From contig JBKHYG010000017.1 of assembly GCA_046565595.1 (NCBI GenBank), positions 1-63,393 on the forward strand: DNA of 63,393 nucleotides, given 5' to 3'. The DNA is from Actinomycetota bacterium. Lineage in GTDB: Bacteria; Actinomycetota; AC-67. A program made the translations under genes and the position numbers. Positions 6,715 to 23,424 of this stretch are shown here, piece by piece (the stretch's first letter is position 1; every line of letters starts with the position of its first letter). The notes beneath the pieces are model-generated. The model was given only the letters and a program-made list of their open reading frames with translations. It did no database searches and had not been told where the DNA came from.

Positions 6715-6791
6715 GATAGCGGCGACATGCAGGTCGCAAGAGTCGTTGCGTCGCTAGGATTGGGCCCTGACGAGATTTGGAGGGAGCCTTC

Positions 6792-7184
6792 GTGCATCGG
6801 AAACGGATCATCGCACTGGTATTGCTCGCTGCCGTGCTGCCTGCGTGCGCGGCCTTGAAGGACCGCGAGCCGTTCCTGGCGCCGGCCATCACCCTCACCG
6901 AGGACCCGGTGACCGGTCAACCGATGATGACCCCCAACGAGATCACTGGCACATGGTCCTACGGGAAGATCCAGATCGAGAACAGCACGGGCTCGGACTA
7001 CTACTTCGTCCAAGACGACCTAGCCATCTACCAGCTGCTGCCCAAGGGTCAGGCTCCCATCGTCTCGATATCTGAAGCCAAGGACGGCAGGACCTACACC
7101 TTCTACCTGGCCAAGGAGAAGCCCGAGAGCGAGATCCGGGCCGAGGGGAAGCTGCACATCAGCTACACAGAAGAGGACCTCTAA
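6792..7184 (+). CDS. lipoprotein, function unknown
   Basis: GTG at 6792 is preceded by GGAGGGAG. Signal plus lipobox 'VHRKRIIALVLLAAVLPAC'. No family recognised. Confidence 0.65.
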   Translation: MHRKRIIALVLLAAVLPACAALKDREPFLAPAITLTEDPVTGQPMMTPNEITGTWSYGKIQIENSTGSDYYFVQDDLAIYQLLPKGQAPIVSISEAKDGRTYTFYLAKEKPESEIRAEGKLHISYTEEDL

Positions 7185-7199
7185 GGCGAGGTCCTCTTC
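7170..7199. terminator. bidirectional hairpin terminator
   Basis: Perfect 12-bp stem gaagaggacctc/gaggtcctcttc with loop taaggc. It spans the TAA stop of the + gene and lies 22 nt from the stop of the convergent - gene. Confidence 0.6.
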
Positions 7200-7220: not shown

Positions 7221-7760
7221 TCAGGCTGGCCGGACATCCAGGGCTTCGTTGAGGACCTGCTCGAAATCGACATTGACCGCCTGGCCTTCGATCGTAGGGT
7301 CTTCGCGGACGGTCAGGAAGTACATGAAGTTGTCGTGGAACCATGTCGAGATGATCTGACCGTTCGACACGATCTGATACACATCGACGCCTTCCTTCTC
7401 GACCGGCTGGGGAACCGCACCCGTGATCCCGCCGAGCAGGTTCCGCAGGAACTCTCGATCATCGAGCCGTGCGTCTGGAGCTAGCCGCGAGACCTGGAAG
7501 ACTGCCCGCAGCTCCTCGCCATCGCGAAGCGCGTAGACGGCTCCCTCGCACTGGTAGGTATCTTTAGGCTCAGACGCGGTGTTCAGCGATTCTGCTGCGT
7601 CGGGCTCGGGCACAACCCGCAAGCCGCCGATCCGATCCGGTGGAGACACTTCCATCCCGAGAGTGGCGTCATCAGGACCACCGCACTGGGCCGCCTCGAA
7701 CGAGGCGCACGCGCTGAGACCCATCGCCAACACCACGAGCAAAGCGACCTTCCTGATCAT
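7221..7760 (-). CDS. lipoprotein, function unknown (last gene of the long minus-strand operon)
   Basis: Start at 'MIRKVALLVVLAMGLSAC' (ATG 7760), overlapping the upstream stop in ATGA. Lipobox LSAC. No family recognised. Confidence 0.65.
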   Translation of the reverse strand: MIRKVALLVVLAMGLSACASFEAAQCGGPDDATLGMEVSPPDRIGGLRVVPEPDAAESLNTASEPKDTYQCEGAVYALRDGEELRAVFQVSRLAPDARLDDREFLRNLLGGITGAVPQPVEKEGVDVYQIVSNGQIISTWFHDNFMYFLTVREDPTIEGQAVNVDFEQVLNEALDVRPA

Positions 7761-8224
7761 CCGTACACGACCAGCTTCCCAGACACCATGTACGGGACCA
7801 CGGTGCACTTGAACTGATAGTTGCCAGGAGCGAGGTTGATCGTCAAGGTCTTCGACTGGCCGCCATCCAACTCGCCCGAGTCGATCGGTGTTCCTTCTAC
7901 GGTGAAAGAGTGTTTCTGACCGGGGTTGGCGCTGTTGATGAACTTCACCTTGTCGCCGGACCTCACCGCGAAATCATTAGGTTCGTAGACATTGCCAGAG
8001 GTCGCCCTGACCTCGTAGGTCTCGGCCTTCGGACCTTGAGGCTTCTGAGTGGTAGGAGGCGGAGCCTTCTTGGTCGGCTTCGGCTTGTCAGGGGCCTTCT
8101 TCGTTGTCGGCGGCTTGGAGGAGGGCGGCGGCGTGTAGTCGAGATCATCACCGATGGAGGTTCCGCTCGAGCAGGCGCCGAGCACCAACAGCATCGCGAG
8201 ACTGATCGATAGACGACGGATCAT
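7757..8224 (-). CDS. cupredoxin-like lipoprotein with Pro/Lys-rich linker
   Basis: Lipobox 'LLVLGAC' and linker 'PPTTKKAPDKPKPTKKAPPPTTQKP'. The C-terminal domain '..GDKVKFINSANPGQKHSFTV..GNYQFKCTVVPYMVSGKLVV' resembles amicyanin/plastocyanin-type cupredoxins. Confidence 0.7.
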   Translation of the reverse strand: MIRRLSISLAMLLVLGACSSGTSIGDDLDYTPPPSSKPPTTKKAPDKPKPTKKAPPPTTQKPQGPKAETYEVRATSGNVYEPNDFAVRSGDKVKFINSANPGQKHSFTVEGTPIDSGELDGGQSKTLTINLAPGNYQFKCTVVPYMVSGKLVVYG

Positions 8225-8232
8225 CAGGGAAG

Positions 8233-11200
8233 CTACTCCTTGTTCTTCTTGGTTACGGCGCCAGAGCGCTTGATGACCGACTCGTCGCCACCCAGATAGG
8301 CCTGGACGACTCGCTCATCGCTCAAGACGACATCGGGACGATCACGGATCACGACCTTGCCCAGTACCATCGCGATCAGCTCGTCGCTGACCGCGCTGAT
8401 CAGAGGCATGTCGTGCTCGATGATGATAAGACTGCAGCCGGTCTCTCGCTTGATCTGGTTCAGCAGCGGGCCCATGTTCTCGGCCTCGCGCTGGGCAAGA
8501 CCGCTCGAAGGCTCATCCAGCAGGAGCACTCGAGGTTCTGCGGCCAATACGCATGCCAGGTCGAGGATGCGACGGGTTCCCGTAGAGAGTTCGCTGACGA
8601 ACTTGTCCCGGTAACCGCCGAGCTCTAAGAGTTCGATGAGAGCATCCGCCTTGCGCCGCGTGGTGGCTTCACTGCGGCGCGCCTGCGGTAGACCCAGGCC
8701 GTGGACCACCATGCTCTTGACCTCGAGGTGCCGTTCGAAGGAGAGCGCGACGGTCTCGAACACGGTCAGCGAGGGGAACAGCTTGGCGTCCTGGAATCGA
8801 CGGACCATACCGAGGGCCGCCCTTTGCTCGGGCGAATAGTTGGTCACATCCTTTCCGAGCAGCATGATGCGACCCTCATCGATCGGGTTGAAGCCGCTGA
8901 TCATCTCGAGGACCGTGGTCTTACCGGCACCGTTCGGCCCGATCAGACCGAGCGCTTCGTTCTCACGGAGGGCGAATGAGACACCGTCGACCGCCCGCAC
9001 GCCGCCGTAGGTCTTGACCAGACCTTCTACCTCGAGGATGTTTGCACGCTCCTCGTCGCGGAGCTTGGGAGCGACCGCGGCGCTGCCTCCGAGGCTCTTG
9101 CCACCCTTGAGGAATACAGCACGCATGATGTCGGGACGGCCGAGCAGGTCCTCGGTCGGACCGTCGAAGCGGATCTCGCCCTTCTCCATGAACACGGCGC
9201 GTTCGGCGACCGTGAGGGCAACATTCACCGACTGCTCGACGAGGATGATCGTCGTCCCACGCTGGTGGATCGCACGAACGATCTTCAGCAGTTGCTCGAC
9301 GATCGCCGGCGCTAGTCCCAGAGACAACTCGTCGATCATCAGCAACTTCGGACGAGACAGGAACGCCTGAGCGAGGGTGAGCATCTGCTGCTCGCCACCG
9401 GACATCGATCCGGCCGCCTGACCGAGCTTCTCACGCAGGATCGGGAAGTAGGAGAAGACCTGCTCGACCTCGTTGGCGTAGTTGGGGTCGTCGCTGTAGA
9501 GCCAGCCGGCGAGCTCGAGGTTCTCCTTGACGGTCAAGGACGGGAAGATGCCTCGTCCACCGGGCGTCTGGGCTATGCCTTCAGCCGCGATCTCGTGCGG
9601 AGGGACATGGGTGATGTCCTTGCCATCGAAGACGATGGCGCCGCCCGAGGCCTCCTGCGTGCCGCTGATGGCTCGTAGAACCGTCGATTTACCCGCGCCG
9701 TTGGTTCCGAGCAGCGCGATGATCTCGCCCTCCTCGACATCGAGATCCACATCGAACAGAACCTGGACGGAGTCGTAGTGGACATCCACGCCGCGAAGGA
9801 CCAGCAACTTGCCCTTGCCGGCGAGCTTGGCTTCTCGCCAGGTCTCCTCTGCGAGTGCTGCCGCTGCGGCCGAGCGCATGTCGAACTCGACATAGGGTCC
9901 GGCGGTGATAACGATGAGGCTACCGATGAACGAGAAGGGCACGAAGGTCAAGATCGCGGATCTCATGCCACCCGCGCCAGCGATCGCGCCGATGATCGGG
10001 AACATGAAGAAGACCGGGATGGTCCAGTAGTCGAGCGTCGCGATACCGAGGTTCCTGAGCCGAGGCGGGATGACCATCGAGGTCACCGCGACGGTCGCGG
10101 GAAGGATCATCGCGTCGAAGAAGGTCGTTATCAGGATGATCGCAACCACGAAGGGGACATTCGGCCCCAGCGCGATCCCTACATAGCCGAGCGCAGTTAC
10201 GGCGCCCGCCACGCCAGAGATCATGACTACACGGCCAGGGTTGCGGCCAACGATGCGGTCCACCAACGGGCCACCCATCGCGACCCCCATGAAGGCGGTG
10301 AGTGCGGCTAGCGAGCCGATGACGCCGCGCGCGAACAGGTCCACCTGATGGGTCGTGGCCAGATACAACGGCATGAAGATGGCGAAGCCCAGCGTCGATA
10401 GCTGGGCGAAGGGGACGGCGTACGAGTAGCGCCTGAGTGTCCGGACCCCCCACGCCGCGCGGAAGGCCTCTCCCCAGGAGGGCGGCTCCTGCTGGCGCCG
10501 CGCGATCTCTTCGTTGGCACCGAAGGCTTTGCGTTCGTGATAGCCGCGGATCGGCTCGGGCATCTTGAAGAAGTACAGGGACAGCAAGACCCCTGCGACG
10601 CCGACGATGAGGAACGGAACGCGCCAGCCGAACATCGACCCGATGACGCCTACGAACAGAGGAGCGATGACTGCGCCGATCTGGCGCCCCGCTGCGCGGA
10701 AGGCATATGACTGGCCGCGCGCTTCGGGCGGGACATAGTCGGCGATCAGCGAGAATCCCACGGCATTGGGACCGAGCTCGCCGACCGTGTCCAAACTGCG
10801 GGCTCCATATAGGCCGAACCTGTTCGGCGAGAGACCGGTGAAGAGGACTCCGATCGAGTTGACCAGCGAACCGATCGCGAACAGCGTGACGCGACGGGAC
10901 CGGTCACCCAGGTATCCCAGCGGCACTGACAACAGCGTTCCCAGGAGCCCGATCCACTTGGCCAACTCGAGGATGGCGCTCAGGTTCAGCTTGAAGGACC
11001 GCTGGATCTCGGGAAGCGCCTGGCTGAAGGCCCTCGCACCGAAGATCGAGACGATCCCGAGAGCCATCAGCATGATCAGGGGTGTGCGACCGTAAGAGGA
11101 CTGCAGGTTGCTGATCCTCAAGCCTTGGCGGATCAGCTTGAAAGGCTGCAACCAGAGCGGACCGTCAGGTTTCTCGTCGCGCCTGGCCGTGGTGCCGGGG

Positions 11201-11364
11201 ATGTGAGATTCGACGATCTCGGTGGGTGCGTCAGCGGGCGGCTCGTGCGAGGTGTCTTCGGGAACCGGAGCGTTGACCGCCGGGATCTCTTTGGTGTCGT
11301 CCTCTACGGTCGTCGAATCGACCTGCGCACCCTCGATCGGTTTCGGGTCCTCTTGCCGGCTCAT
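8233..11364 (-). CDS. triple fusion: MFS transporter domain + LivF-like ABC ATPase + LivG-like ABC ATPase
   Basis: Start at 'MSRQEDPK' (ATG 11364, ATGA overlap with the upstream stop). MFS motifs 'LGYLGDRSRRVT' and 'VPPEARG'. NBD1 has GTNGAGKST/SGGEQQ/LLMIDELSLGL. NBD2 has GPNGAGKTT/LSTGTRR/LLLDEPSSGL. Confidence 0.85.
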   Translation of the reverse strand: MSRQEDPKPIEGAQVDSTTVEDDTKEIPAVNAPVPEDTSHEPPADAPTEIVESHIPGTTARRDEKPDGPLWLQPFKLIRQGLRISNLQSSYGRTPLIMLMALGIVSIFGARAFSQALPEIQRSFKLNLSAILELAKWIGLLGTLLSVPLGYLGDRSRRVTLFAIGSLVNSIGVLFTGLSPNRFGLYGARSLDTVGELGPNAVGFSLIADYVPPEARGQSYAFRAAGRQIGAVIAPLFVGVIGSMFGWRVPFLIVGVAGVLLSLYFFKMPEPIRGYHERKAFGANEEIARRQQEPPSWGEAFRAAWGVRTLRRYSYAVPFAQLSTLGFAIFMPLYLATTHQVDLFARGVIGSLAALTAFMGVAMGGPLVDRIVGRNPGRVVMISGVAGAVTALGYVGIALGPNVPFVVAIILITTFFDAMILPATVAVTSMVIPPRLRNLGIATLDYWTIPVFFMFPIIGAIAGAGGMRSAILTFVPFSFIGSLIVITAGPYVEFDMRSAAAAALAEETWREAKLAGKGKLLVLRGVDVHYDSVQVLFDVDLDVEEGEIIALLGTNGAGKSTVLRAISGTQEASGGAIVFDGKDITHVPPHEIAAEGIAQTPGGRGIFPSLTVKENLELAGWLYSDDPNYANEVEQVFSYFPILREKLGQAAGSMSGGEQQMLTLAQAFLSRPKLLMIDELSLGLAPAIVEQLLKIVRAIHQRGTTIILVEQSVNVALTVAERAVFMEKGEIRFDGPTEDLLGRPDIMRAVFLKGGKSLGGSAAVAPKLRDEERANILEVEGLVKTYGGVRAVDGVSFALRENEALGLIGPNGAGKTTVLEMISGFNPIDEGRIMLLGKDVTNYSPEQRAALGMVRRFQDAKLFPSLTVFETVALSFERHLEVKSMVVHGLGLPQARRSEATTRRKADALIELLELGGYRDKFVSELSTGTRRILDLACVLAAEPRVLLLDEPSSGLAQREAENMGPLLNQIKRETGCSLIIIEHDMPLISAVSDELIAMVLGKVVIRDRPDVVLSDERVVQAYLGGDESVIKRSGAVTKKNKE

Positions 11365-13511
11365 ACGGTCACCTTCCCATATAGACGGGACGGCAGCGTG
11401 TAACGCTGATCGGCCCGAAGGGCTCCGATCCCTTGGCTTGGCACGGCAGGAGCCAAGGGCGTGAGGCGTTTCTCCCAAGCATCTGGAGAGTAATCAGCGA
11501 ACAGACTGGGAACGACGATGTGTCGCCTAAGCGCGACGACCCGCAGCACAGCATCCCGTATCCCGAAGACGATCTGGGCGAGGCCGCCTGGGATCGCCAT
11601 CATCAGGGCGAGCCCACCGACCCCGGTCAGGATGCCAAGCACCCCAGGGAACAGGATGCCTCCGCCCACGAAATACAGGGTTCCGAGGAAGGCACCAGCG
11701 ATCGAACTCACGCCTCCGATGATGACCAGTTGGAACACACCGAAGGAGAGTTGCGCGTTGTAGAAGGCTGGATCCATGCCTCGCTGAAGATGCACAGTGA
11801 TGCCTCCAGCGAAGGCCGCCAAGAAGCCCGAGATCGCGAAGGCCATCAGGCGTGTTCGCACGATGTCCACACCGAAGGCCTGGACACCCTGCTCGTTGTC
11901 GCGAAGCGCGATCAGCAGGCGGCCTGCGCGACTGTTGCGAAGGGTCCTCACCATCACCGCGACGATCAGGAACGCCAGCAGGGAGAAGTAATACTGCGTC
12001 CGCGGATCGTCGAGATTGAACACCAAGATGCTCGGACTCTCGATGAGAGTTGGAACGCTGCTAGCCAGGAACCTGTCCGAGAACAGGATCGTCGGGAACG
12101 CGATAGCCAGCGCGAAACTCGAGACCGCAAGGAACAAGCCTCGGATCCGCAGAGCGGGAAGCCCAACCAGAACCGCGAGTATGGCGCCAGCGAGACCAGC
12201 GATGGGCAGCGCGAGGAGGAACGGGAACCCGGTCGAGGTCAGGTTTCCTGCGATGTAGGCCCCTGTCCCCAGGAATGCGATGTGACCCAGGCTGATCTGG
12301 CCGGTCCAGCCGGTCAGGATGACCAGAGATACCGCCAGGATCGACCCGGTCCAAACCGCGCTCATCGCGCCGGTGTTCTCGGATCCGAACACCCATGGGA
12401 ACGCCAAGACGATCAATGCCCCGATGGCGATCAACGATTGGCGCGTTCGTCGGATGAAGGGCAGCGCCAAGAGTTCGCGCGGGGTGGGGCGCACCTCTCG
12501 GGTCGCCTTCCAAGAACTCGAGTCGTCCACGCGAGAAACCTTGTGCCTCTGGAACAGCAGGGCAACCAGGACGATGCCGAAGGTGATGATGTCGAGCAGA
12601 GAACCATCACCCAGTTGGGCGAACATGCTCTGCCGAAGGATCACCAGCCCCATACCCGTGAGGAAAGCGATCGGGAGGCTCATCATCTTGGCTACCACCG
12701 CGGCGGTCAGCGGTAGCACCAGGACGGTCTGAGGGGCGACCTGTCCGGGGACATAGGGTTCGGTCACCATGTTGGCGATGCCGGCAACACTCGTGATCAA
12801 CCCGACGATGGCCCAGACGCCGATGTTCAGCAGCTTGACATTGATACCGAGCAGCGATGCACGATCGGCGTTCTCGGCAGAAGCTCGGACCGCGATCCCC
12901 ATCCGGGACCGTTTGAAGAAGATCACCAGACCAAGCAAGGCGAGCGCGATGGCGAAGAAGCTGACGATGTGAGCCAGCCGGATGGGGGTAACCCCTAGCT
13001 GGAAGATCTGGTTATCGAAGAATGTGCCGGGCGTTGGGATCGGCTGAACCTGGATGCTCTCGCCGGGCTTCTGGAAGGCCGAGGCGACCTCTTGACTGAC
13101 GATCCCAACGATGCCGGTCATGAACACGGTGACAACCGTCAAGGTCAGGCGCGGATGCCTGAAGAACAGCGTCGAGGCCAGGATCCCGATGATCACCGCG
13201 ACCAAGGTTCCGCCGATGATCCCGACCGGCCAAGCGATCGGATACGGCAGGATCCCGCGCGTGTAGAACTCGTAGAAGAGCTGCATCGCGACCAGCGCCA
13301 GAGACGACTGCGCGAAGTTGATGATCCTGACCGTGCGGTAGATCATCACCAGCCCGATCGCGGAGATGCCCACGGTGGCAGCAGGGATAAGGCCGGTCAG
13401 GAACTCGCCAGCGGTTAGGCCCGCGACACCGAACGCATAGATCCCAAGGAGCAGGCCGATCCCCGCCGTTAGCGCGACGGTGAGTGTCTTACCTTCGAGC
13501 TTCTTGCTCAC
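11361..13511 (-). CDS. fused branched-chain-amino-acid-type ABC permease (LivH-like + LivM-like halves)
   Basis: 716 aa and very hydrophobic. The N half resembles LivH ('..MIYRTVRIINFAQSS..'). The C half resembles LivM ('..LTGWTGQISLGHIAFLGTGAY..'). The GTG start overlaps the upstream stop (GTGA). Confidence 0.9.
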   Translation of the reverse strand: MSKKLEGKTLTVALTAGIGLLLGIYAFGVAGLTAGEFLTGLIPAATVGISAIGLVMIYRTVRIINFAQSSLALVAMQLFYEFYTRGILPYPIAWPVGIIGGTLVAVIIGILASTLFFRHPRLTLTVVTVFMTGIVGIVSQEVASAFQKPGESIQVQPIPTPGTFFDNQIFQLGVTPIRLAHIVSFFAIALALLGLVIFFKRSRMGIAVRASAENADRASLLGINVKLLNIGVWAIVGLITSVAGIANMVTEPYVPGQVAPQTVLVLPLTAAVVAKMMSLPIAFLTGMGLVILRQSMFAQLGDGSLLDIITFGIVLVALLFQRHKVSRVDDSSSWKATREVRPTPRELLALPFIRRTRQSLIAIGALIVLAFPWVFGSENTGAMSAVWTGSILAVSLVILTGWTGQISLGHIAFLGTGAYIAGNLTSTGFPFLLALPIAGLAGAILAVLVGLPALRIRGLFLAVSSFALAIAFPTILFSDRFLASSVPTLIESPSILVFNLDDPRTQYYFSLLAFLIVAVMVRTLRNSRAGRLLIALRDNEQGVQAFGVDIVRTRLMAFAISGFLAAFAGGITVHLQRGMDPAFYNAQLSFGVFQLVIIGGVSSIAGAFLGTLYFVGGGILFPGVLGILTGVGGLALMMAIPGGLAQIVFGIRDAVLRVVALRRHIVVPSLFADYSPDAWEKRLTPLAPAVPSQGIGALRADQRYTLPSRLYGKVTV

Positions 13512-14554
13512 AACACCTCACCGGGATCAAGCCGGGCGAGACGCGCGAGGAAGTTGCCGCTGATGAAAGTGTTGCCGCCGTCGATCGAGAAGACCTCCTG
13601 GATCGACCAACCGCCATACTGGGTCGCCATCCAGAAACTCCCGATCAACGAGACCTCGACATCACCGGTGATCTCGATGCTCGTGTTGAAACGCCAGGCC
13701 TGCGCCATCTGGTCACAGACGAAGACATTCTGTGGCTGCGCGACGATCACGCTCGTCGAGATGGTGGAGCTAGGCGGCGCAAGGGGAAGCTGCTGGCCTT
13801 CGACTTCCACATCGTTAGCTGCACGGTTGGGCTGAGTCGAGTCGGTCCTTTGGCCGGCACCCAGTGGGAAGCTGGCCAGTTTGAGACCACCGGTCTCGGC
13901 GTTGGCAGGTATGAACACGCGCGACTGTGTCTTATCGGCGGCCAGCGGGATCCGGATGCTTCGCAGGTAGATGCCAGCGACCTCGGCGTTCGAGGATTCC
14001 GCGTTCTCTGAAGCCTGCGACGGATAGATGATCGTGTACTCCATCGTCACGCCGTGACCTTCGTCGATCACCGTGTAGAAGAAGGAGTTCGTGCTCTCGT
14101 TGTCGCGCCGGACACCGACCCGCTTGTAGTCGTAGCCAGACTTCGACGGCTCGCCCGCGTAGTTGCCCTGATAGAAGGTCGGATACTGGCCGCGTCGAGG
14201 CCAGTTCCCTCCCCGCTCTGGGTCGTCAGGGTCGAAGGGACCAGGCCTGACCGAAGGAGGCGCCTGACCGTCGCGTGGCGAGTTCGTCTGCACGCCCGGG
14301 CAGAACGGGGTAGGCGGCGGCGGGGGTGGCGGCGGCGGAAGTGGAGGCGGCTCGTCCGGCGGGATGAAGATGTTCGGCGGAGGCGGGGGAGGAAGCGGCG
14401 GAGGCTCCAAGAGCTCCTCGACATCCACACCGAAGGCGAGGTCCACGGCGACCTTGCCGATGCTGACATCGGCCTTGGGCGCGAGGTTCGCGCAGGAGCT
14501 CACCGCGAAGGCGAGAGCCAGGACCGAAGCGAGATAGTTACGCGACCACTTCAT
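13508..14554 (-). CDS. lipoprotein with long poly-proline tracts, function unknown
   Basis: Signal/lipobox 'MKWSRNYLASVLALAFAVSSC'. Tracts 'PPPLPPPPPPN..PPPLPPPPPPPPPTP' are followed by a ~250-aa beta-rich domain. It overlaps the upstream gene by 17 nt and the downstream gene by 4 nt. It does not resemble a Peripla_BP_6 binding protein. Confidence 0.7.
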   Translation of the reverse strand: MKWSRNYLASVLALAFAVSSCANLAPKADVSIGKVAVDLAFGVDVEELLEPPPLPPPPPPNIFIPPDEPPPLPPPPPPPPPTPFCPGVQTNSPRDGQAPPSVRPGPFDPDDPERGGNWPRRGQYPTFYQGNYAGEPSKSGYDYKRVGVRRDNESTNSFFYTVIDEGHGVTMEYTIIYPSQASENAESSNAEVAGIYLRSIRIPLAADKTQSRVFIPANAETGGLKLASFPLGAGQRTDSTQPNRAANDVEVEGQQLPLAPPSSTISTSVIVAQPQNVFVCDQMAQAWRFNTSIEITGDVEVSLIGSFWMATQYGGWSIQEVFSIDGGNTFISGNFLARLARLDPGEVL

Positions 14555-16973
14555 CTTGCTTTCCCTTCCGTCTGGGGAACGACGGTAGACGGAGACGGAT
14601 CCGGTTTCCGTAGCGGATCTTCGTGCCCCTCTTCCTACGCTTCGGGAGGAACTTCCGCCACTCGAACTTGGGTACCGGCGGGCTCAGGAGTTCCGGAGCG
14701 TACGGATTGCGAAGACTCAAGCGCGACACATAGGCGACCGCCCTGATGGTGAAGGGTTGGGCTTCCGAGAGCCTCCTACGCAGGGAGCGCGACAACTCCT
14801 CGGCAGCTAGGACCTCGTCATCAGTGATCCGGCCTCGCAGGTCGCCGAAGAGCGTGCGTGTGACCAGCCAGGCCAACTCTTGGTGTTCCTCGTCGGGAAC
14901 GACCTTGCGGGTGTAGGCCAGCGGGGTCCCATAGGGGTCTCCGACGCCCAGGTCGGTGGCTAGGTCGCGCATGTCCGCATAAGCCACGGCGATCCGCTCG
15001 GAGCGTCCCTGCCGCAGCGCCCATTCCTTGCGTTTGGACCGGCGGCGCGCTTTGAGGATCACCGGGTAGGCGAAGTAGGCGAGGATGGCCGCGAGGATGA
15101 AAGGCATGGCGAGCAAGATGTATGCCTGCGCTTGCCGCAGCAGGTAGTTGGTGGGCTCGTCACGCTGAGGCACGAACAGGTTCACCGCGATGTCGTCACT
15201 CGGCAGGATGATGGAGTCCTGCGAAGCGTCGCCGGTGAGGCTCTGGCGCGCCTTCTTTGGAAGTCCGGTCACCGGGAACCAGCCGATGCCCTCGAAGTAG
15301 ACCTCGAGCCAGGAAGCGCCGTGCTTGGGTCGGTACTCGCGAAGCGTCTGGGCGGCCGCGGAAGCCTCACCGACATCGAAGCCGTAGCCGATACGCGCAG
15401 GCACACCGAGCCAACGCGCGAACATCGCTTGCGTTGCGACGATCTCGAATGGTGTGGCCTCACGGGTGCCGCTGAACATGTCTTCGATCTTCTCTGGCGG
15501 CACCGGGCTCGGAAGGCCGGCTCCGGCTGCCGTGATCATGCCCAGGTACTCCTCACGGATGTAGTCGAGCTGATCCCAGGTGTTGTCATAATCCTGTCGC
15601 GCCGTGGCGATGAGCGCGGCCGCAGACTCAGGCGGTTCGAGTTCAGCGGTGGAGGTGAATTCTTCGAAGAAGGCGGGGTCGGTGGGAGCAGGAGCGTTAC
15701 GCAGTTCCTGCTCGGTCGGCAGGAACGAGAACGAAGCCTGGTAGGCCAGCCCGTCGCCGACCTGACCCTCACGCACGAGGACGCGCTGCGTACGCACCTC
15801 GAGATCGAGTTTCGGGCCCTTGGTCACGCGGATCGCCTGCACCCGCGCCGGCATCGGGAGAACGGTGCCGTCGAGCCCCTGAACATTGATCGTCACGATC
15901 GACTGGCTCGGGCCCTCGTGACCGAAGGGACGGCCGACCAGACCATCGCGCGGCGCAGCTCGTTGTCCCGCCGCGTTGAAAGGCGGCAGCCTCCACCAAC
16001 CCTCCGGATCGATGACATCGAGGACGCCGGTGCGCCACGGCCCGGTGAAAGGAGCGTCCGGCGGGGTCTCGGCGGTGAACAGAACCCGGTCTTCGATCTC
16101 GGACAGTGGGATGGACTTAGGCCGCTGCGCGCGCTCGGTGGGGTCGAAGATCGGGTCGGGGAACAGGAAGCCTGCCTGGCTGACGGCGACCAGCGCGGCT
16201 GTCAGTGCTGCCAGCAGAGGCAACATACGGACCGCGCGACGGATCTCGTAGGCGACCGAGACCCCGTCACCTTCTCCCCTGTCCGCTCGGTAGATGACAG
16301 CCAGGCCGACGACGAAGGTGATGAAGGCGACGATGCCGGATGCGATCTGAGCGTCGGAAGGCTGCGCGATGGCTGCGAATGCGATCACCGGCATCGGTAC
16401 GAGAACGCCCATGGCCGGTTTGCGACCTACGGATCCCACCCAGGCGGCAGCGAAACCGAGCATCGCGAGCGTCCAGGGCAGGATCGCTTTCCAACCGTCA
16501 TCGAAGACCGCAGGAGGGCGGCGTTGCCTGGCGTTGGAGACTGCCTTTCCGAGCGTTTCTCCGATCGAGCCCAACGCTCCAGGGGAGGTGATCGCGAGCG
16601 CAACCAGTCCGCAGGCGAGGATCGCGCCGAAGGCGATCAGTTGGCTGACCCCGGGGCGCTTCGAGGGGCGTGCGGCGAACATCGCCGCGCCCACACCGAC
16701 CAAGGCACCGAAGACCGCGTAGAAGCGCGGCAGCGCACCGACGAACATGCCACCGACCAGGAACGCCGCACCGAGCGTGGTCGAGAGCGCCCCGAACGAG
16801 GGGCGCATGATCTCTTCCCGCGTTAACGGGCGATCCTCTTCCTCCTCGATCAGTTCAGAAGCCTGGCGGACCTTGCGTTCGGCTTCGCCACCGGAGTCCG
16901 CATGGGTGTCCGGCGTGGGAGCCGCCTGAGCATCCTCGAGTTCGGTGCGCGGGTCTTCGATGATCTGGCTCAT
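14538..16973 (-). CDS. transglutaminase-like (TgpA-type) polytopic membrane protein, apparently lacking the catalytic Cys
   Basis: 811 aa with N-terminal multi-TM region. The transglutaminase-core-like segment is '..ATPFEIVATQAMFARWLGVPARIGYGF..KHGASWLEVYFEGIGWFPVTGLP..'. A further TM is followed by a DUF4129-like tail. ATGA overlap with the DUF58 gene. Confidence 0.8.
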   Translation of the reverse strand: MSQIIEDPRTELEDAQAAPTPDTHADSGGEAERKVRQASELIEEEEDRPLTREEIMRPSFGALSTTLGAAFLVGGMFVGALPRFYAVFGALVGVGAAMFAARPSKRPGVSQLIAFGAILACGLVALAITSPGALGSIGETLGKAVSNARQRRPPAVFDDGWKAILPWTLAMLGFAAAWVGSVGRKPAMGVLVPMPVIAFAAIAQPSDAQIASGIVAFITFVVGLAVIYRADRGEGDGVSVAYEIRRAVRMLPLLAALTAALVAVSQAGFLFPDPIFDPTERAQRPKSIPLSEIEDRVLFTAETPPDAPFTGPWRTGVLDVIDPEGWWRLPPFNAAGQRAAPRDGLVGRPFGHEGPSQSIVTINVQGLDGTVLPMPARVQAIRVTKGPKLDLEVRTQRVLVREGQVGDGLAYQASFSFLPTEQELRNAPAPTDPAFFEEFTSTAELEPPESAAALIATARQDYDNTWDQLDYIREEYLGMITAAGAGLPSPVPPEKIEDMFSGTREATPFEIVATQAMFARWLGVPARIGYGFDVGEASAAAQTLREYRPKHGASWLEVYFEGIGWFPVTGLPKKARQSLTGDASQDSIILPSDDIAVNLFVPQRDEPTNYLLRQAQAYILLAMPFILAAILAYFAYPVILKARRRSKRKEWALRQGRSERIAVAYADMRDLATDLGVGDPYGTPLAYTRKVVPDEEHQELAWLVTRTLFGDLRGRITDDEVLAAEELSRSLRRRLSEAQPFTIRAVAYVSRLSLRNPYAPELLSPPVPKFEWRKFLPKRRKRGTKIRYGNRIRLRLPSFPRRKGKQDEVVA

Positions 16974-18271
16974 CCGCGGCTCCCCGCGCCGACCTCGTGG
17001 TACAGGGCACTTGCTATGGACTGTCCGGGCCTCAGTTCAACGACCTGACAGCCAAGCGACGCCGCGACCCGGACGGTCTCCTCGTGATCCTCTTCCCACA
17101 CGAGAGCCACCACCAAGACAGAGACACCCTTGCGAAGCAGGAACTGCAACCGCGCTGCGGTCTCTCTGGAGAGCAGAGGCGTGATGAGGATCGTGTGCGC
17201 GTCGCGCTTGTTGTTGACCAACAGACGCTGGAACACCTCGTCCAACAACTTCTTGGATGGCTCGAGTCGAGCGAAGCCGTCCAGCACCTGCATCGCCGCC
17301 GCGTCTCCTCGGGCCTTCATCGCGAGCATCGGCCCATCGTTGGTCTCGACATTGACCGTGTAGCCCTCGTGCAGGTGTCGAACCGCCAGCGAGGCCGCGG
17401 TACGGACCCCTGCCTCGAAGGATTCGCTCTGCTCTTCTCGAGAGTGGGTGCCCTTGAAGGTGTCGAAGATGATCGTGATCTGGTCGGTGATGCCCTGCTC
17501 GGCTTCGCGTACGAGCATCCGCCCGGTGCGTGCGAAAGCGCGCCAGACGATCCGCCGCAGATCGTCACCGGGCTGGTAGTCGCGCATCCCGTAGAACTCG
17601 AGACCGCTCGGCCAGGGCTTGGAGAACGGAGGACGGATCGGCGGGTCTTCGAAGTGGCGCGTGAGCGGTCGACTGGAGACATGTTCGATGTTCGGATGGA
17701 CCAGCAACTCGAACTCGGGAACGAGGACCTGCTCGCGTTGGGTCAGTCCGATCGGATCGCCCCACCGGACCACCAGTGGTCCCAACTTGTAGACGCCGCG
17801 CCGCTTGCAGTAGAGGCGGTAGGAGTGCTGGATGTCTTCGCCCGCGTGAAGGGTGGCCAGCGGCAACTGCACCGTCGTACCCAGACGGTCGGGCAGTTCC
17901 TCTTCGAGGACGATCGTCGACAGCTTCTTCTTCGCATGCAGGATCAGGTCGATACCCAGCGTCTCGCCGACGCGTGCACGCGCGCGCACATCCGAGCGTT
18001 CGCCGGTCAGCGGAAGGCTACGGCGTCCGGTCAGGTAGACCGTGAGTATCAGACCGACCGCACCGTAGGCGAAGAGATAGAGCGTCTTGCCCGCTACCCA
18101 ATAACCGATCAGCCAGAGGATGACGGCGAGCACGACTCCCAGCAGACCGATCGGCGTCAGGCCGATCTTGCGCTGGATGCGCAGCATCAACGGACGCCAG
18201 GTCTTGGCGGAAGTCGCGGTAGCGATCCCGTCGCTGACGCTCCGTTGGAGCCGCTTGAGCCGACCCTCCAT
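16970..18271 (-). CDS. DUF58 domain-containing protein (MoxR partner, VWA-related)
   Basis: Two N-terminal TM helices and the hallmark 'FYGMRDYQPGDDLRRIVWRAFARTGRMLVRE'. It sits immediately downstream of moxR. Confidence 0.85.
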   Translation of the reverse strand: MEGRLKRLQRSVSDGIATATSAKTWRPLMLRIQRKIGLTPIGLLGVVLAVILWLIGYWVAGKTLYLFAYGAVGLILTVYLTGRRSLPLTGERSDVRARARVGETLGIDLILHAKKKLSTIVLEEELPDRLGTTVQLPLATLHAGEDIQHSYRLYCKRRGVYKLGPLVVRWGDPIGLTQREQVLVPEFELLVHPNIEHVSSRPLTRHFEDPPIRPPFSKPWPSGLEFYGMRDYQPGDDLRRIVWRAFARTGRMLVREAEQGITDQITIIFDTFKGTHSREEQSESFEAGVRTAASLAVRHLHEGYTVNVETNDGPMLAMKARGDAAAMQVLDGFARLEPSKKLLDEVFQRLLVNNKRDAHTILITPLLSRETAARLQFLLRKGVSVLVVALVWEEDHEETVRVAASLGCQVVELRPGQSIASALYHEVGAGSRG

Positions 18272-18296
18272 CTGTTACCTCGTCCCGTCCAGGTCC

Positions 18297-19352
18297 CTAC
18301 TCGTCGGACACGACAGAGCGGTTACCGGTTCCGTCCTTCACATCACCCATGAGAGGAGCCTTGACTCGACCGACGACTCGCTCGATGACCGCCTCGATGT
18401 TCTCGCCGCGCAGGATCGCGTCGGGAGACAGGATGAGACGGTGCGCGAGCACCGGGTTCAAGATCGTCCGCACATCATCTGGGTACACATGGCCACGACC
18501 ATCACTGGCAGCCAGGACGCGTGCAGCGCGCAGCAGGTTGATGGGAGCACGCGGCGATGCGCCCATCGCGAGCCCAGGCTCTTCGCGGGTCGCCTGGCAC
18601 AGATCAACGATGTAGAACTGGACCGCCTCGGAGCATTCGATGGACTCCTGAGCGAATGCGATCATCGCCGCCGCGTCCTCGGTCTCGATGACGGCGCCCA
18701 GGGAGTCGACAGCCAGTTCCTTGGCGTTGGCGGACATGATGATGCGCTCGGCGTCACGACTGGGATAGCCCATCTTCAGCTTGAACATGAAACGGTCGAG
18801 CTGGGCCTCAGGGAGAGGGAAGGTACCCGCCTGCTCGACAGGGTTCTGGGTCGCAAGCACGAGGAAGGGCCGCGGCAGGTTGCGGATAACTCCGTCACCG
18901 GTCACGCGACGCTCTGCCATGGCCTCCAGCAGCGCGGACTGGGTCTTTGGGGTCGCGCGGTTGATCTCGTCAGCCAGGAGGATGTTGGCGAAGATCGGCC
19001 CTTCGTGGAAGACGAACTTCTTCTTCTCTTGGTCGTAGATGCTGGTTCCGGTGATGTCCCCGGGGAGCATGTCCGGCGTGCACTGGATGCGGCCGGCTTC
19101 AGCGTTCAACGACTGCGCTAACGCACGCGCGAGGACGGTCTTGCCGACGCCCGGAACATCCTCGAACAGGATGTGGCCCTCGGAGAGCATCGCGACCAAA
19201 GCGAGACGCGAGACATCGTCCTTACCCTTGACGACGGTGCCGACATTGCTGATGACCGCTTCGAAGACCCGCTGATAGGTCTTCGGATCGAGCCGAGCCG
19301 AACCCCTGCTGCTCGTGGCGCTGGAGCTCCGCTTCTTGGTGGTTGTCGCCAT
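18297..19352 (-). CDS. moxR: MoxR-family AAA+ ATPase
   Basis: Walker A 'DVPGVGKTVLARAL', Walker B 'ILLADEINRATPKTQSALLEAM', and the MoxR-type 'RIQCTPDMLPGDITG' and 'FLVLATQNPVEQAGTFPLPEAQLDRF' segments. Confidence 0.93.
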   Translation of the reverse strand: MATTTKKRSSSATSSRGSARLDPKTYQRVFEAVISNVGTVVKGKDDVSRLALVAMLSEGHILFEDVPGVGKTVLARALAQSLNAEAGRIQCTPDMLPGDITGTSIYDQEKKKFVFHEGPIFANILLADEINRATPKTQSALLEAMAERRVTGDGVIRNLPRPFLVLATQNPVEQAGTFPLPEAQLDRFMFKLKMGYPSRDAERIIMSANAKELAVDSLGAVIETEDAAAMIAFAQESIECSEAVQFYIVDLCQATREEPGLAMGASPRAPINLLRAARVLAASDGRGHVYPDDVRTILNPVLAHRLILSPDAILRGENIEAVIERVVGRVKAPLMGDVKDGTGNRSVVSDE

Positions 19353-19639
19353 CCTCTCCCCTATGTCGCGTGCTGACGCCTAGGCGTCTGGTCATGCCAG
19401 GCCACACCAGGGACGGGAACCAGGACGGGTCGTCCTGCCCCACGACCTCCATGCAACCTTCGTCCCCCTCTGACCACGGACGGCATGAGACGCCTCCCGA
19501 CTCCGAGGGGAAGGCGCCAGAGTAGCGCAGGGAAAGGCGATACCGCCAACGCCCGCGGGCAGGGAAATCGCATCAAGACGGCGAACATCATGTGCGAGCG
19601 TGGCCCATCGCCACCTTTACTTCCAAGGAGGAAACCCCG

Positions 19640-20125
19640 ATGCGATCCATCCGATTCCTGCTGGCAGCCCTGCTGCTCGGCATGCTCGCTCCGGTTGCGG
19701 CACAAGCCGATTATCCGGAAGAGTGCGAATCCCCCATCCGCCTGCTGTCTGGCCGCGGCGTGCTATTCGACTGGGGTGCTGTGAACTGCAGTTATGCCCA
19801 GGAGCCGACCCTAGGTAGCACCTCCATCGTTATCCCTGGCGGAACCCAGATGGTCGTCCGCTTCAACGGCGCGAAGCCGGTGGACGGCATCTCGCAGATG
19901 GGTACCGGCTCGAAGGTCACATACGGTCAGACCACCAAGTACCTGCGGTTCGAGCCTGCCACCGGCGCCGACGGCAACCCGCTGGCTGGACACTGGGACG
20001 CTTCCTTCAGCGTCGGCAATGTCGAAACGGTTAACGCGGGCGAGTACCTCATCTCTGTGATCTCGCCTGAGGGGCTCGAGGGTGCGGATGTCACCTACGA
20101 GCGCTCGTACAGCACCGTCGCCTGA
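19640..20125 (+). CDS. small secreted protein, function unknown
   Basis: ATG at 19640 is preceded by AAGGAGGAAA. Signal peptide 'MRSIRFLLAALLLGMLAPVAAQA'. No family recognised. Confidence 0.6.
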   Translation: MRSIRFLLAALLLGMLAPVAAQADYPEECESPIRLLSGRGVLFDWGAVNCSYAQEPTLGSTSIVIPGGTQMVVRFNGAKPVDGISQMGTGSKVTYGQTTKYLRFEPATGADGNPLAGHWDASFSVGNVETVNAGEYLISVISPEGLEGADVTYERSYSTVA

Positions 20126-20197: not shown

Positions 20198-21628
20198 TCA
20201 GGCCCGGATGGTCTCGTAGGGAGCGACCACCAAGGTGCGGCGATCCTTGGTTCCGCCCAGGGCGAAGACCCGACGGCTCGAGCCGTTGGTCAGGTCTCCC
20301 TCCAGGAGGTTGCCTTCCGGGTTGGCGACGACCTCGAGCTGATAGAAGCCGTTCGGCAGGTCGGTGACATCGAAGGCCTGGCCGAACTGCCCCTGGTGGT
20401 AGGTGTCTCCCCAACCCACGGGCAGGGTCTCGCGGATCGCCACGCTCTCAGGACCTCCGCAGCGGCTGTAGCCGAGTTCACCGGGACGCCAGTTGGCTCC
20501 AGGGACGGTGACGTCCTGAGCATCGGTCGGAGCTAGGCAGAACGACTGCTTGCCGGAGGTCAGCGTGTGCACGCCGTCCGCGTCCAACAGCCTGTATTCG
20601 GCGAAGTCGGTGAAATGCCAGTGGTAGTGGGTCGGATCGTCGTGGAAGATCATCTCCCCGACCTCTTGGGTTCCGATGCGGACCCCGTCGCGGAAGAACG
20701 CCTGATAGGCCCGCATGGTCTCTTCGCCATCTTCCCTGAACGCGTCCACGACCAGAGGAGCGGGACCGGCGTTCCACACCGTCGCGTTGAAGGCGACCAG
20801 GGTCCGACCGAACTCGCGTCGCAGGCCGATGTTCCAGGCCGGCAGGGAGCGCAGGTCAGGCAGCGTCGCCGGGTCGAGATCGGAGGGAGCGCCATCAGGT
20901 CCGTCCGGGACGACCTCGGGCCCACGATCGTCGATCGGGCGGGGCTTACCCGGTCCGGGGCCGCCCCAGTTGGCCTCGTTGATGGTCATCGGATAGCTCA
21001 TCACCTGCGGGGGCAGGCCGAGAGCATCCCGCCAGGGCTTCGTGATCCAGATCCGTACCGCATACGACTGCCTAGCCGGCAGCGGGGCGGTCAACGAGAG
21101 ATAGGGGCTCGCGATCCAGCCTTTCTCGATGCCCCAGACCTGACCTTGCGTGAAGGGGTTGCCGTAGCAGCCGGAATCCGGGTATATCGCCTGGTCAGAG
21201 GCCTCAGCGGTGGCAGGGAAGCGGTCGTATCCCGACGGACAGAAGGACCTTCGGACGCTAGCCAGGGTTCGGCCAGCCCCGTCGACGACCTCCATCCGGA
21301 AGAAGCCGTAGAAGGCCCCGCCCCGCCATCCGCGGATGAGTCCGGCGGGCAGGACGACATCCCCGCTCGGACGCCTCCAAGTGGCGACGATGGGCTCGTC
21401 ATACTTGGGCCTCTGAACGAGGATCTCGAAGTTCTCTCGGTCTGCCTGGACCATGACCGTCGGCGAGATCCAGACCTTTCCGGTCTGCGAGTCGCGCCAG
21501 GCGTCTACGGTCTTGGAACCTCCTCTGAGGCGAAGGGTGGGTGCTTCTTCAGCCTGCGCGCTCGTCGTTCCAACGACCGGGAGCATGCTGAAAGCGGCGA
21601 CGATCGCCGCGAGTCTCGAACGAGACAT
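20198..21628 (-). CDS. secreted lysyl-oxidase-like copper amine oxidase
   Basis: Start at 'MSRSRLAAIVAAFSMLPVVGTTSAQA' (ATG 21628, SD AGGAGGAAC). The C-terminal domain aligns by eye to the LOX catalytic domain: 'THYHWH' (HxHxH Cu site), 'SGKQSFCLAPTD' (LTQ Lys), 'GWGDTYHQGQFGQAFDVTDLPNGFYQLEVVANP' (LTQ Tyr). Confidence 0.8.
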   Translation of the reverse strand: MSRSRLAAIVAAFSMLPVVGTTSAQAEEAPTLRLRGGSKTVDAWRDSQTGKVWISPTVMVQADRENFEILVQRPKYDEPIVATWRRPSGDVVLPAGLIRGWRGGAFYGFFRMEVVDGAGRTLASVRRSFCPSGYDRFPATAEASDQAIYPDSGCYGNPFTQGQVWGIEKGWIASPYLSLTAPLPARQSYAVRIWITKPWRDALGLPPQVMSYPMTINEANWGGPGPGKPRPIDDRGPEVVPDGPDGAPSDLDPATLPDLRSLPAWNIGLRREFGRTLVAFNATVWNAGPAPLVVDAFREDGEETMRAYQAFFRDGVRIGTQEVGEMIFHDDPTHYHWHFTDFAEYRLLDADGVHTLTSGKQSFCLAPTDAQDVTVPGANWRPGELGYSRCGGPESVAIRETLPVGWGDTYHQGQFGQAFDVTDLPNGFYQLEVVANPEGNLLEGDLTNGSSRRVFALGGTKDRRTLVVAPYETIRA

Positions 21629-21747
21629 CGTTCCTCCTGGTGAACCGCGGGGGCCAGCGCTGATCGTCGACCCTCTCGCGTCTGCTAACCGTTCAGACAC
21701 CGGCCGAGCGCTTCCGGTTCCACCGGACGGGAACTCATCCCATGCGA

Positions 21748-21776
21748 GAGGGCTGCCCGCTCGGCGGACAGCCCTC
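21748..21776 (-). terminator. possible hairpin terminator after glnK
   Basis: Imperfect stem gagggctgcccgc/gcggacagccctc (one mismatch) with a 3-nt loop, 28 nt downstream of the glnK stop. There is no U-tract. Confidence 0.35.
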
Positions 21777-21803
21777 AAGATCTCCGTTCGGACGGTCAGT
21801 AGG

Positions 21804-22203: not shown

Positions 22204-23424
22204 TCATCCGGCTCGCATAGAACCAGCGTCGCTGGTCACATAGGCGGTCTCCCCATGTTGGGTGAGATCGCAGCCGGTCATCTCCTCTTCCTCCGATACG
22301 CGGAGCCCCACCGTCTTGTCCACGAGCACGATCAGGACGAAGCTCACCACGGCACTGAAGGCCATGGTCGCTAAGACCCCGACACCTTGATCGACGAACT
22401 GACTGAAGTTACCGAACAACCAACCGTCGTCCCCAGCGGGGTTCACGGCGGTCGTCGCGAAGACTCCTGTCAGCATCGCGCCGATCAGACCACCGACCAG
22501 GTGGACGCCGACGACATCCAACGAGTCGTCGTAACGCAACCGCGTCTTGAGTCCGACGGCCAGGTAGCAGACCAGCGCAGCGACGAAACCGATCACAGCC
22601 GCTGCCCATGGCTCGACGAAACCTGCAGCCGGAGTCACCGCGACGAGCCCGCCTACGGCACCGGTTGCCGCGCCGACCGCGGTCGCCTTACCTGCACGCA
22701 ACCGCTCGATCAGGAGCCAGCCGCACAGACCGGCTGCCGCACCGAAGTGCGTCGTAGCGAGCGCGTTGATCGCGACCCCGTCTGCGGCTAGCGCGCTGCC
22801 TGCGTTGAAGCCGAACCAACCGAACCACAGGATGCCTGCGCCGAGCACGGTCATCGGGATGTCGTGCGGAGGCGCGCCGTCCCTTGGGAAACCCTTGCGT
22901 GGCTTCAGATAGATGGCGAACACCAGTGCAGCGATGCCAGCGTTGATGTGTACGACCGTGCCTCCGGCGAAGTCCAGGACTCCCTTGGTGAACAGCCATC
23001 CGTCGCCGTGCCACACCCAGTGCGCGACCGGGGAGTAGACGAGCAACGACCAGAGCACGAAGAACACGACGACCCCACGGAACTTCGCTCGCTCGGCGAA
23101 CGCTCCGCTGATCAGCGCCGGAGTGATGATCGCGAAGGTCATCTGGAAGGTCGCGAAGAGTAGATCGCCGCCTGCGACATTGTTGAAGAAGTAGAAGTCA
23201 CCGCCTCCGATGAATCCGCCCTTGTCGGGCCCGAAGGCGAGCGCGTAGCCGGCTGCCAGCCACACGATCGAGATGACCCCCATGCATACGACCGAGTGCA
23301 TGAAGGTCGACAGAACATTCTTGGAGCGGACGAGTCCGCCATAGAACAACGCCAGGCCTGGCGTCATGAAGAGCACGAGCGCCGTGGCCATGATCAGCCA
23401 AGCGATCGATCCTGAGTCTTCCAT
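22204..23424 (-). CDS. amtB: ammonium transporter (Amt family)
   Basis: 406 aa and polytopic, with '..LVLFMTPGLALFYGGLVRSKN..' and 'DFAGGTVVHINAGIAAL'. SD AGGGGGA lies upstream of the ATG at 23424. Confidence 0.95.
   Translation of the reverse strand: MEDSGSIAWLIMATALVLFMTPGLALFYGGLVRSKNVLSTFMHSVVCMGVISIVWLAAGYALAFGPDKGGFIGGGDFYFFNNVAGGDLLFATFQMTFAIITPALISGAFAERAKFRGVVVFFVLWSLLVYSPVAHWVWHGDGWLFTKGVLDFAGGTVVHINAGIAALVFAIYLKPRKGFPRDGAPPHDIPMTVLGAGILWFGWFGFNAGSALAADGVAINALATTHFGAAAGLCGWLLIERLRAGKATAVGAATGAVGGLVAVTPAAGFVEPWAAAVIGFVAALVCYLAVGLKTRLRYDDSLDVVGVHLVGGLIGAMLTGVFATTAVNPAGDDGWLFGNFSQFVDQGVGVLATMAFSAVVSFVLIVLVDKTVGLRVSEEEEMTGCDLTQHGETAYVTSDAGSMRAG

Follow-up and report, generated by a model that had tools for sequence, protein, structure and literature searches.

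The window analysed here, the 63,393-nt contig JBKHYG010000017.1 of an Actinomycetota bacterium (GenBank assembly GCA_046565595.1), carries on its minus strand an operon of eight co-directional open reading frames (ORFs; 19352→7221) that combines a MoxR-type ATPase, a DUF58 protein and a TgpA-like transglutaminase (TGase)-fold protein with a fused transporter and three lipoproteins. The transporter consists of a LivH-LivM permease fusion (LivHM) and a polypeptide in which a major facilitator superfamily (MFS) domain precedes two ATP-binding cassette (ABC) ATPases (MFS-LivF-LivG, or MFS-ABC); the lipoproteins are called X, lipoA and lipoB. Because other genomes conserve these genes as a set, a functional linkage between the MoxR/TgpA-like module and the transporter is very probable. 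Taken as a whole, the explanation that the two form a single envelope system, conserved among uncultured Actinomycetota related to the Acidimicrobiia, in which MoxR assembles, remodels or gates the transporter, seems to us fairly likely. The operon was first described in an earlier note made from the sequence alone. Its eight genes, their coordinates and all seven junctions were reproduced exactly when recomputed from the sequence, and its domain calls (MoxR, DUF58, Transglut_core, LivHM, MFS plus two ABC domains, Cupredoxin_1) are backed by Pfam and NCBIfam.

The TgpA-like protein has 59 indexed homologues (35-100% identity), and six neighbourhoods chosen across 36-52% identity all contained the transporter. 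A metagenome scan with a nine-sequence profile of this protein, in which the best 80 of 160 relatives were kept, gave 79 more loci and, after de-duplication, 80 distinct loci whose TgpA-like proteins are 33-65% identical to that of the window. The earlier note had regarded module and transporter as one system and had proposed a synteny comparison to see whether the transporter genes lie apart from the module in relatives. We ran this comparison, and the linkage held: among uncultured soil Actinomycetota, the transporter adjoins the module in 47 of 47 informative loci anchored on the TgpA-like gene, although the genes occur in two different orders and their flanks are unrelated. Order O1 (31 loci), which is that of the window, reads moxR-DUF58-TGase-X-LivHM-MFSABC-lipoA-lipoB, and order O2 (16 loci) reads LivHM-MFSABC-moxR-DUF58-TGase-{X,lipoB}. 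The other 33 of the 80 loci are cut short before the position expected for the transporter, so that none of them is a counterexample to the linkage. Gene families across loci were called with seeded iterative hidden Markov models (HMMs); single-linkage ORF clustering was dropped because it joined the TGase, X and lipoB families via overlapping, low-complexity ORFs.

Among the six chosen neighbourhoods, L087-L090 show order O1 with unrelated flanks, and L091 and L172 show order O2, with a binding protein, a 310-318-aa protein, LivHM, MFS-ABC, moxR, DUF58, the TgpA-like gene, X and lipoB. Module junctions are short in both orders (-4 to +46 nt). Outside the window's subclade, the pairing persists with unrelated flanks down to 33% identity of the TgpA-like protein and about 30% identity of the MFS domain. 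We also examined five neighbourhoods of the MFS-ABC fusion. At 64-67% identity the entire eight-gene arrangement recurs; at 43-47% identity LivHM and MFS-ABC are followed by a gene for an approximately 600-aa protein, and MoxR genes are missing. In order O1 the transporter genes lie between X and lipoB, both of which are tied to the TgpA-like protein by gene fusions (see below), so that the module's genes enclose those of the transporter.

Several points weigh against a single system of this kind. All relatives are metagenomic and uncultured, and the metagenome scan covers the better-scoring half of the relatives found with its nine-sequence profile. A second scan, of GTDB with one genome per species and a profile of the MFS domain, yielded among the matches listed one further full cluster (L007), and the ratio of linked to unlinked transporters is not readable from these matches. 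It also revealed a sister clade, here called B, of at least about 33 species (Acidimicrobiia, Ilumatobacteraceae, Microthrixaceae) that encode LivHM, MFS-ABC and a binding protein. Within 10 kb of these transporters we detected, among the matches listed, no moxR, DUF58, TGase-like, X or lipoB gene. Dependence on MoxR is thus not a general requirement of this transporter type, and the MoxR module appears to be an accessory rather than a universal requirement of the transporter. In a neighbour-joining tree of 57 MFS-ABC sequences (midpoint-rooted, without support values), the O1 sequences form one clade, the MoxR-less B sequences form another beside an O2 group, and O2 is paraphyletic. The arrangements track the phylogeny of the transporter, which suggests that few independent events, approximately one rearrangement and one loss, lie behind the linkage. 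X and lipoB are without a recognisable fold or family in Pfam and PDB searches. Finally, the corresponding trio of Pseudomonas aeruginosa has internal promoters (PMC3507681), and a single transcript is a presumption for the operon studied here.

These observations bear on the explanation that there is no functional link, i.e., that two independent systems are adjacent by shared descent in compact genomes and that their overlaps reflect genome economy. The arrangements are indeed few and follow phylogeny, the transporter stands alone in clade B, and the downstream neighbourhood of the window's subclade (MetH-like, luciferase-like, peptidyl-prolyl isomerase, GreA) is syntenic as well. However, shared descent would have to account for a pairing that persists among unrelated flanks at the low identities given above, and that survives a change of gene order and the shuffling of X, lipoB and the binding protein. 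Furthermore, none of the informative loci has the TgpA-like subfamily without the transporter. We therefore consider the absence of a link improbable, and pure chance adjacency is unlikely given that the linkage is rearranged and yet persists.

The TgpA-like protein (14538-16973, minus strand; 811 aa) is a membrane protein with about seven predicted transmembrane (TM) helices. It is built from an N-terminal helical bundle, an extracytoplasmic pseudo-transglutaminase domain, one TM helix and a C-terminal helical domain, and this last domain, past the final membrane helix, is its most conserved part. The protein matches Transglut_core (9e-7, 29.6 bits; cut-off 23), whereas for TgpA_N (DUF3488; cut-off 30) it scores 19.3 bits; many relatives are annotated with PF11992. 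In the AlphaFold model (predicted local distance difference test score, pLDDT, 77) the ectodomain resembles P. aeruginosa TgpA (6g49) with a Foldseek E-value of 2e-10 and a TM-score on the target of 0.68. When the profile is aligned to 6g49, the catalytic Cys is matched by Pro508, a residue invariant across 40 sequences, and Ala and Thr stand in for the His and the Asp, respectively. Accordingly, the label transglutaminase-like is right as to the TgpA fold and the Transglut_core match, but the catalytic triad is lost, and the subfamily is predicted to be a pseudoenzyme. An active transglutaminase or protease role was rejected because the triad is absent. The retention of the TgpA fold with an invariant Pro in place of the catalytic Cys suggests that the protein acts as a scaffold or in binding and not as an enzyme.

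Lipoprotein X (13508-14554, minus strand; 348 aa), listed before as the "poly-Pro lipoprotein", has its lipobox Cys at position 21, directly followed by a conserved V.V.K..DL.FG strand, a Pro-rich linker and an all-beta C-terminal domain. Cys85 and Cys280 are invariant, and the Pro-rich linker is exaggerated in the window's subclade. With a family HMM, X was found in 76 loci overall, and in 56 of 63 loci, representing both gene orders, it lies directly 3' of the TgpA-like gene. The "third lipoprotein", lipoB (7221-7760, minus strand; 179 aa), was found in the same way in 46 loci and in order O2 immediately adjoins X and the TgpA-like gene. According to the source annotations, the TgpA-like protein is fused C-terminally to X in P0135 and P0139 (about 1097 aa) and to lipoB in P0146, P0147, P0148 and P0150 (902-960 aa). 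Several of these fusions are represented by more than one member or contig; an example locus of a TgpA-like fusion is L171 (1018-4317). In such fusions, the old lipoprotein signal peptide would act as an additional membrane helix. The earlier note had put the lipoproteins in the place of a binding protein. This view has to be abandoned for X and lipoB, since their placement and their fusions to the TgpA-like gene elsewhere identify them as partners of the TgpA-like protein and members of its module rather than replacements of a binding protein.

Neither X nor lipoB has a Pfam match, with nothing usable even at E<=5. Searches of PDB sequences with profiles of X (25 sequences) and lipoB (23 sequences) returned only noise (E>0.7), and a model of X from a five-sequence alignment (pLDDT 46) found nothing in the PDB below E 0.1 with Foldseek. 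For the C-terminal domain of X, a k-mer-indexed homologue search gave five matches and an exhaustive profile search 46 cluster representatives at E<=1e-3. The X family appears to be small and fast-evolving, with a narrow subclade profile.

The remaining lipoprotein, lipoA (7757-8224, minus strand; 155 aa), consists of a Pro/Lys-rich linker and a cupredoxin-fold domain (Cupredoxin_1, 6e-9, 36.3 bits; cut-off 27) and is confined to gene order O1 (about 23 O1 loci). Its designation as cupredoxin-like is borne out by the Cupredoxin_1 model but does not extend to the metal site. In the family alignment the copper ligands are not conserved: the window protein has H/C/Y/M at these positions, and the Cys is present in no other family member. 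We therefore rejected a copper-protein role for lipoA, given that the His/Cys/Met ligand positions are not conserved. Matches of the lipoA HMM that overlap X in L092 and L093, or that lie on the minus strand in some loci, were ignored as Pro-rich low-complexity artefacts.

The first gene of the operon, moxR (18297-19352, minus strand), encodes a cytoplasmic MoxR-type AAA+ ATPase of the MRP-like subfamily (351 aa) with strong matches to AAA_3 (4.2e-62, 208 bits; cut-off 27) and AAA_lid_2 (5e-21, 74.6 bits). Its ATPase motifs are intact (P-loop PGVGKT, Walker B ILLADE), and orthologues are 57-87% identical across all linked loci. The DUF58 gene (16970-18271, minus strand) begins 25 nt downstream, and the pair is kept in all linked loci. 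The DUF58 protein (433 aa; PF01882, 6.8e-14, 52 bits against a cut-off of 23.4) has two N-terminal TM helices (41-59 and 64-82) followed by a von Willebrand factor A (vWA)-like DUF58 domain. This domain is without a canonical metal ion-dependent adhesion site (MIDAS; DxSxS) and reads D-T-F-K-G-T-H-S in the window. The consensus of 52 orthologues at the MIDAS-like position is D-T-D-R-G-S-H-S, with D, H and S invariant.

MoxR-vWA pairs are also the subject of a work in which Kaur and colleagues reportedly described, in 2020, "biological conflict" systems, and a defence or anti-phage function would fit the match of the window's MoxR to the Pfam model bpMoxR, which at 24.5 bits is weak and below the cut-off of 27. 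PADLOC returned no match for any of the six non-transporter proteins, we saw no beta-propeller or effector domain, and the genes are vertically conserved in an ordinary chromosomal context. In view of the missing PADLOC match, we rejected this reading, which we consider extremely improbable.

The permease fusion (11361-13511, minus strand; 716 aa, HAAT family) contains two BPD_transp_2 domains (2.2e-52, 178 bits), a LivH-like part (38-320) and a LivM/UrtC-like part (269-613), with about 17-18 TM segments by hydropathy. Its GTG start overlaps the stop codon of X, and in relatives its gene always lies 5' of that of the MFS-ABC fusion. The latter (8233-11364, minus strand; 1043 aa) combines a Spinster-like MFS domain (residues about 90-520; MFS_1, 1.8e-35, 123 bits) with two ABC_tran domains, a LivF/UrtE-like (523-740) and a LivG/UrtD-like (774-1026) nucleotide-binding domain (NBD). 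Both NBDs are intact, with Walker A motifs GTNGAGKS and GPNGAGKT, signatures MSGGEQQ and LSTGTRR, and Walker B motifs LLMIDE and VLLLDE. The BCA_ABC_TP_C tail is weak (20.4 against 25.5), and no specific equivalog cut-off is truly reached by the protein, as the UrtE score of 309 bits is a sum over two NBDs. Among solved structures, the MFS profile hit the Hyphomonas Spinster homologue 6e8j best (3.6e-32; next 1e-16), which points to a Spinster-like domain. It shows about 10-11 hydrophobic segments in a crude scan and a motif-A-like sequence, GYLGDRSRRV, whose D and R are invariant.

The fusion is not an assembly artefact, because in 57 independent loci the same reading frame runs without interruption through the junction. 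About 40 full-length homologues share the architecture down to 40% identity, all of them from uncultured Actinomycetota. Free-standing MFS homologues with 25-30% identity (Caulobacter, Pseudomonadales, Streptomyces) have no ABC fusion. A different fusion solution within the same transporter family is seen in P0043-P0046 (about 1260-1333 aa), which join a BPD_transp_2 permease and two ABC domains in one chain without an MFS domain and are 50-52% identical to the ATPase half of the window protein.

The transporter had been described as lacking a binding protein. This holds for the window, where neither tblastn nor the family HMM at E<=1 found a homologue in the 63 kb, but not for the family: most relatives encode a divergent, membrane-anchored Peripla_BP_6 protein beside the cluster, and only in the window's subclade is it not nearby. 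The protein concerned is the approximately 600-aa neighbour mentioned above. A membrane anchor at its N-terminus, a low-complexity linker and a divergent Peripla_BP_6 domain lead us to take it for the binding protein; the L006 copy matches PF13458 at 7e-9, and copies are 38-60% identical to one another. Several clade B loci (L025, L030, L038, L040) have two to five tandem binding-protein matches downstream of the transporter. The fragmented binding-protein matches in L039, L040 and L062 suggest frameshifts in long-read assemblies. To judge from the cognate Peripla_BP_6-type binding protein found in most relatives, the transporter is most likely an importer.

From these data we infer a physical complex with a core of seven co-travelling proteins, MoxR, DUF58, TgpA-like, X, lipoB, LivHM and MFS-LivF-LivG. 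In this model, DUF58 would serve as a membrane-anchored vWA-like adaptor and the TgpA-like protein as a membrane scaffold with a dead transglutaminase-fold domain, with which X and lipoB would associate. A cytoplasmic MoxR hexamer would be recruited by DUF58 and by the conserved C-terminal domain of the TgpA-like protein, its presumed cytoplasmic tail, and would use the energy of ATP for assembly, remodelling or gating of the transporter complex, whose extracytoplasmic face would be built from the pseudo-transglutaminase ectodomain, X and lipoB. In the window's subclade, substrate would have to be delivered by an unlinked binding protein or by the lipoprotein/ectodomain assembly. That MoxR acts on the transporter is suggested by analogy, because other MoxR-vWA pairs act on adjacently encoded clients, and we put this part forward tentatively. 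A chaperoning or gating role of the module for the transporter, as proposed in the earlier note, rests on the same analogy. A more specific version, according to which the module is the dedicated ATP-driven partner of a hybrid Spinster-MFS/Liv ABC transporter and the ectodomain-lipoprotein assembly of the subclade took over substrate capture, appears doubtful to us.

The main rival to a MoxR-gated transporter is a coupling through the pathway without chaperoning. Here, the module would be an envelope-remodelling or surface-binding machine of its own, MoxR would act on the TgpA-like complex, and the transporter would merely supply or remove the module's small molecule, for example a lipid or amphipathic compound via the Spinster-like MFS domain or released peptides or amino acids via the Liv-type part. 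This would explain why X and lipoB fuse to the TgpA-like protein and not to transporter subunits, and it is in line with the nearest relative of the MFS domain being a Spinster homologue and with clade B transporters that occur without the module. Trios without a transporter exist in Pseudomonas, where they form a co-transcribed unit with an essential tgpA (PMC3507681), and in the bifidobacterial PFNA clusters (PMC8430577, as cited in PMC12067865). On the other hand, the triad is lost, so that no product-releasing enzyme is evident in the module, and adjacency in 47 of 47 loci together with the embedding in O1 is tighter than usual for loose coupling. We regard pathway coupling as unlikely.

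All parts of the system are of known kinds. Its first three genes recall PA2875, PA2874 and tgpA (PA2873) of P. aeruginosa, in which we take PA2875 to be of the MoxR type and PA2874 of the DUF58 type. The two operons share the trio and its order, and TgpA likewise has a multi-pass N-terminus and a large outward-facing transglutaminase-fold domain. The P. aeruginosa genes are co-transcribed and tgpA is essential; TgpA has a conserved Cys-His-Asp triad and transglutaminase activity in vitro (PMC3507681). In the TgpA-like protein, by contrast, the catalytic Cys is invariantly Pro and the other two triad residues are replaced. The Pseudomonas operon also has no ABC or MFS transporter and no X or lipoB, all of which are present in the window. 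A similar likeness exists to the bifidobacterial PFNA cluster (pkb2-fn3-aaa_atp-duf58-tgm) and the mycobacterial moxR1 operon, which are actinobacterial MoxR-DUF58(-transglutaminase) sets with an extracytoplasmic accessory protein (PMC8430577; PMC12067865). No transporter is reported in either, unlike the window, and the moxR1 operon has a vWA membrane protein in place of the TgpA-like one. Unlike in the PFNA cluster, we detected neither a Ser/Thr kinase nor an FN3 protein in the window's operon or the scanned flanking genes.

On the transporter side, LivHMGF/LivJ and UrtABCDE (HAAT, TCDB 3.A.1.4) share the LivH/LivM permease domains, the intact LivG/LivF ATPases and, with most relatives of the window, a binding protein of the Peripla_BP_6 type. 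The system differs from LivHMGF and UrtABCDE in that its two permeases form one chain, an MFS domain of the 12-TM class precedes both ATPases in a single polypeptide, and the binding protein is TM-anchored, highly divergent and not in the window. The best solved relative of the MFS domain, HnSpns (PDB 6e8j), is a stand-alone secondary transporter, whereas in the window this domain forms the N-terminal part of a protein with two ABC ATPases.

The model of MoxR action draws on MoxR-vWA pairs that act on neighbouring clients, namely NorQ/NorD on nitric oxide reductase, CbbQ/CbbO on Rubisco and CoxD/E/F on carbon monoxide dehydrogenase, as well as on RavA/ViaA. The operon resembles them in placing a MoxR-class AAA+ ATPase and a vWA-like adaptor beside the presumed client. 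It differs in its adaptor, a DUF58 protein with a non-canonical MIDAS position, and in the TgpA-like scaffold that is interposed. We know of no described MoxR-vWA pair with an ABC or MFS transporter as its client. Our literature searches found no described link of MoxR/DUF58(-TgpA) to a transporter, no Spinster-MFS/LivF/LivG fusion, no X or lipoB family and no catalytically dead TgpA subfamily, and the combination is thus undescribed in the literature searched.

From 5' to 3', the junctions of the operon measure 25 nt, -4 (ATGA), -17, -4 (GTGA), -4 (ATGA), +8 and -4 (ATGA). By themselves, such tight junctions are ordinary in a high-GC operon; it is the recurrence of these genes as a set in other genomes that goes beyond chance. 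The ATG of moxR is preceded by the ribosome-binding site GGGGAGAGG. The 239-nt intergenic region upstream of it (19353-19591, read on the minus strand), which is common to the divergent gene, is the presumed promoter region. A scan of it for the sigma-70 consensus gave 0 sites, a consensus that says little for this phylum, and no Rfam family was found there; Rfam and tRNA scans of the 63-kb window gave no matches either.

Where the operon meets a convergent lipoprotein gene lies a hairpin with a perfect 12-bp stem (7170-7199; GAAGAGGACCTC-gcctta-GAGGTCCTCTTC). Its -26.0 kcal/mol makes it the most stable of the 44-nt local folds computed for the transcript strand (mean -11.5, standard deviation 3.9). 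The earlier note rightly pointed to this hairpin, but its statement that no strong hairpin precedes it is only roughly true, as imperfect structures within the genes come near its strength (-25 to -22.5 kcal/mol). There is no U-tract 3' of the stem, and the hairpin is likely a bidirectional terminator without a U-tract. The convergent gene (6777-7184, plus strand), which shares the hairpin with the operon end, encodes a 135-aa lipoprotein with no Pfam match at E<=5 and is kept at the same position in the window's subclade only (L001, L004, L007/L087).

The operon is set in an unremarkable stretch of chromosome, with Amt, DAHP synthase, FtsH, BipA and a MetH-like gene among the genes around it. 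Just upstream lies a gene for a 526-aa protein with a Lysyl_oxidase domain (20198-21778, minus strand; PF01186, 8.9e-9), and near it are genes for a 177-aa secreted protein without a family (19592-20125, plus strand) and the ammonium transporter Amt (22204-23424, minus strand). Farther away, a 1352-aa ORF without a Pfam match (39223-43281, minus strand) is located between genes for an FtsH-like protease (37226-39220) and a PBP_like_2 protein (43288-44526). O1 relatives outside the window's subclade encode a 346-439-aa protein (16 loci) and a 163-187-aa protein (11 loci) 3' of lipoB, and an approximately 320-380-aa protein beside the divergent binding-protein gene (19 loci). The extra conserved O1 genes (L088, 14882-16445; L089, 19920-21764; L090, 4409-5377 and 19994-21792) have no Pfam match, and none of them is in the window.

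MoxR-DUF58-TgpA trios are widespread, and to our knowledge neither a client nor a mechanism has been established for them. A trio subfamily that is tied to one specific transporter in two gene orders and across deep divergence offers a concrete candidate client. The natural series of loci with module and binding protein, with the module only, as in the window, and with the binding protein only lends itself to comparison. Present in dozens of Acidimicrobiia-related species, the MFS-LivF-LivG architecture also invites the question of how a fold known from secondary transporters can work within a primary one. If MoxR does act on the transporter, this would be the first MoxR system with a membrane transporter as its client and would give the widespread MoxR-DUF58-TgpA trio a first concrete job.

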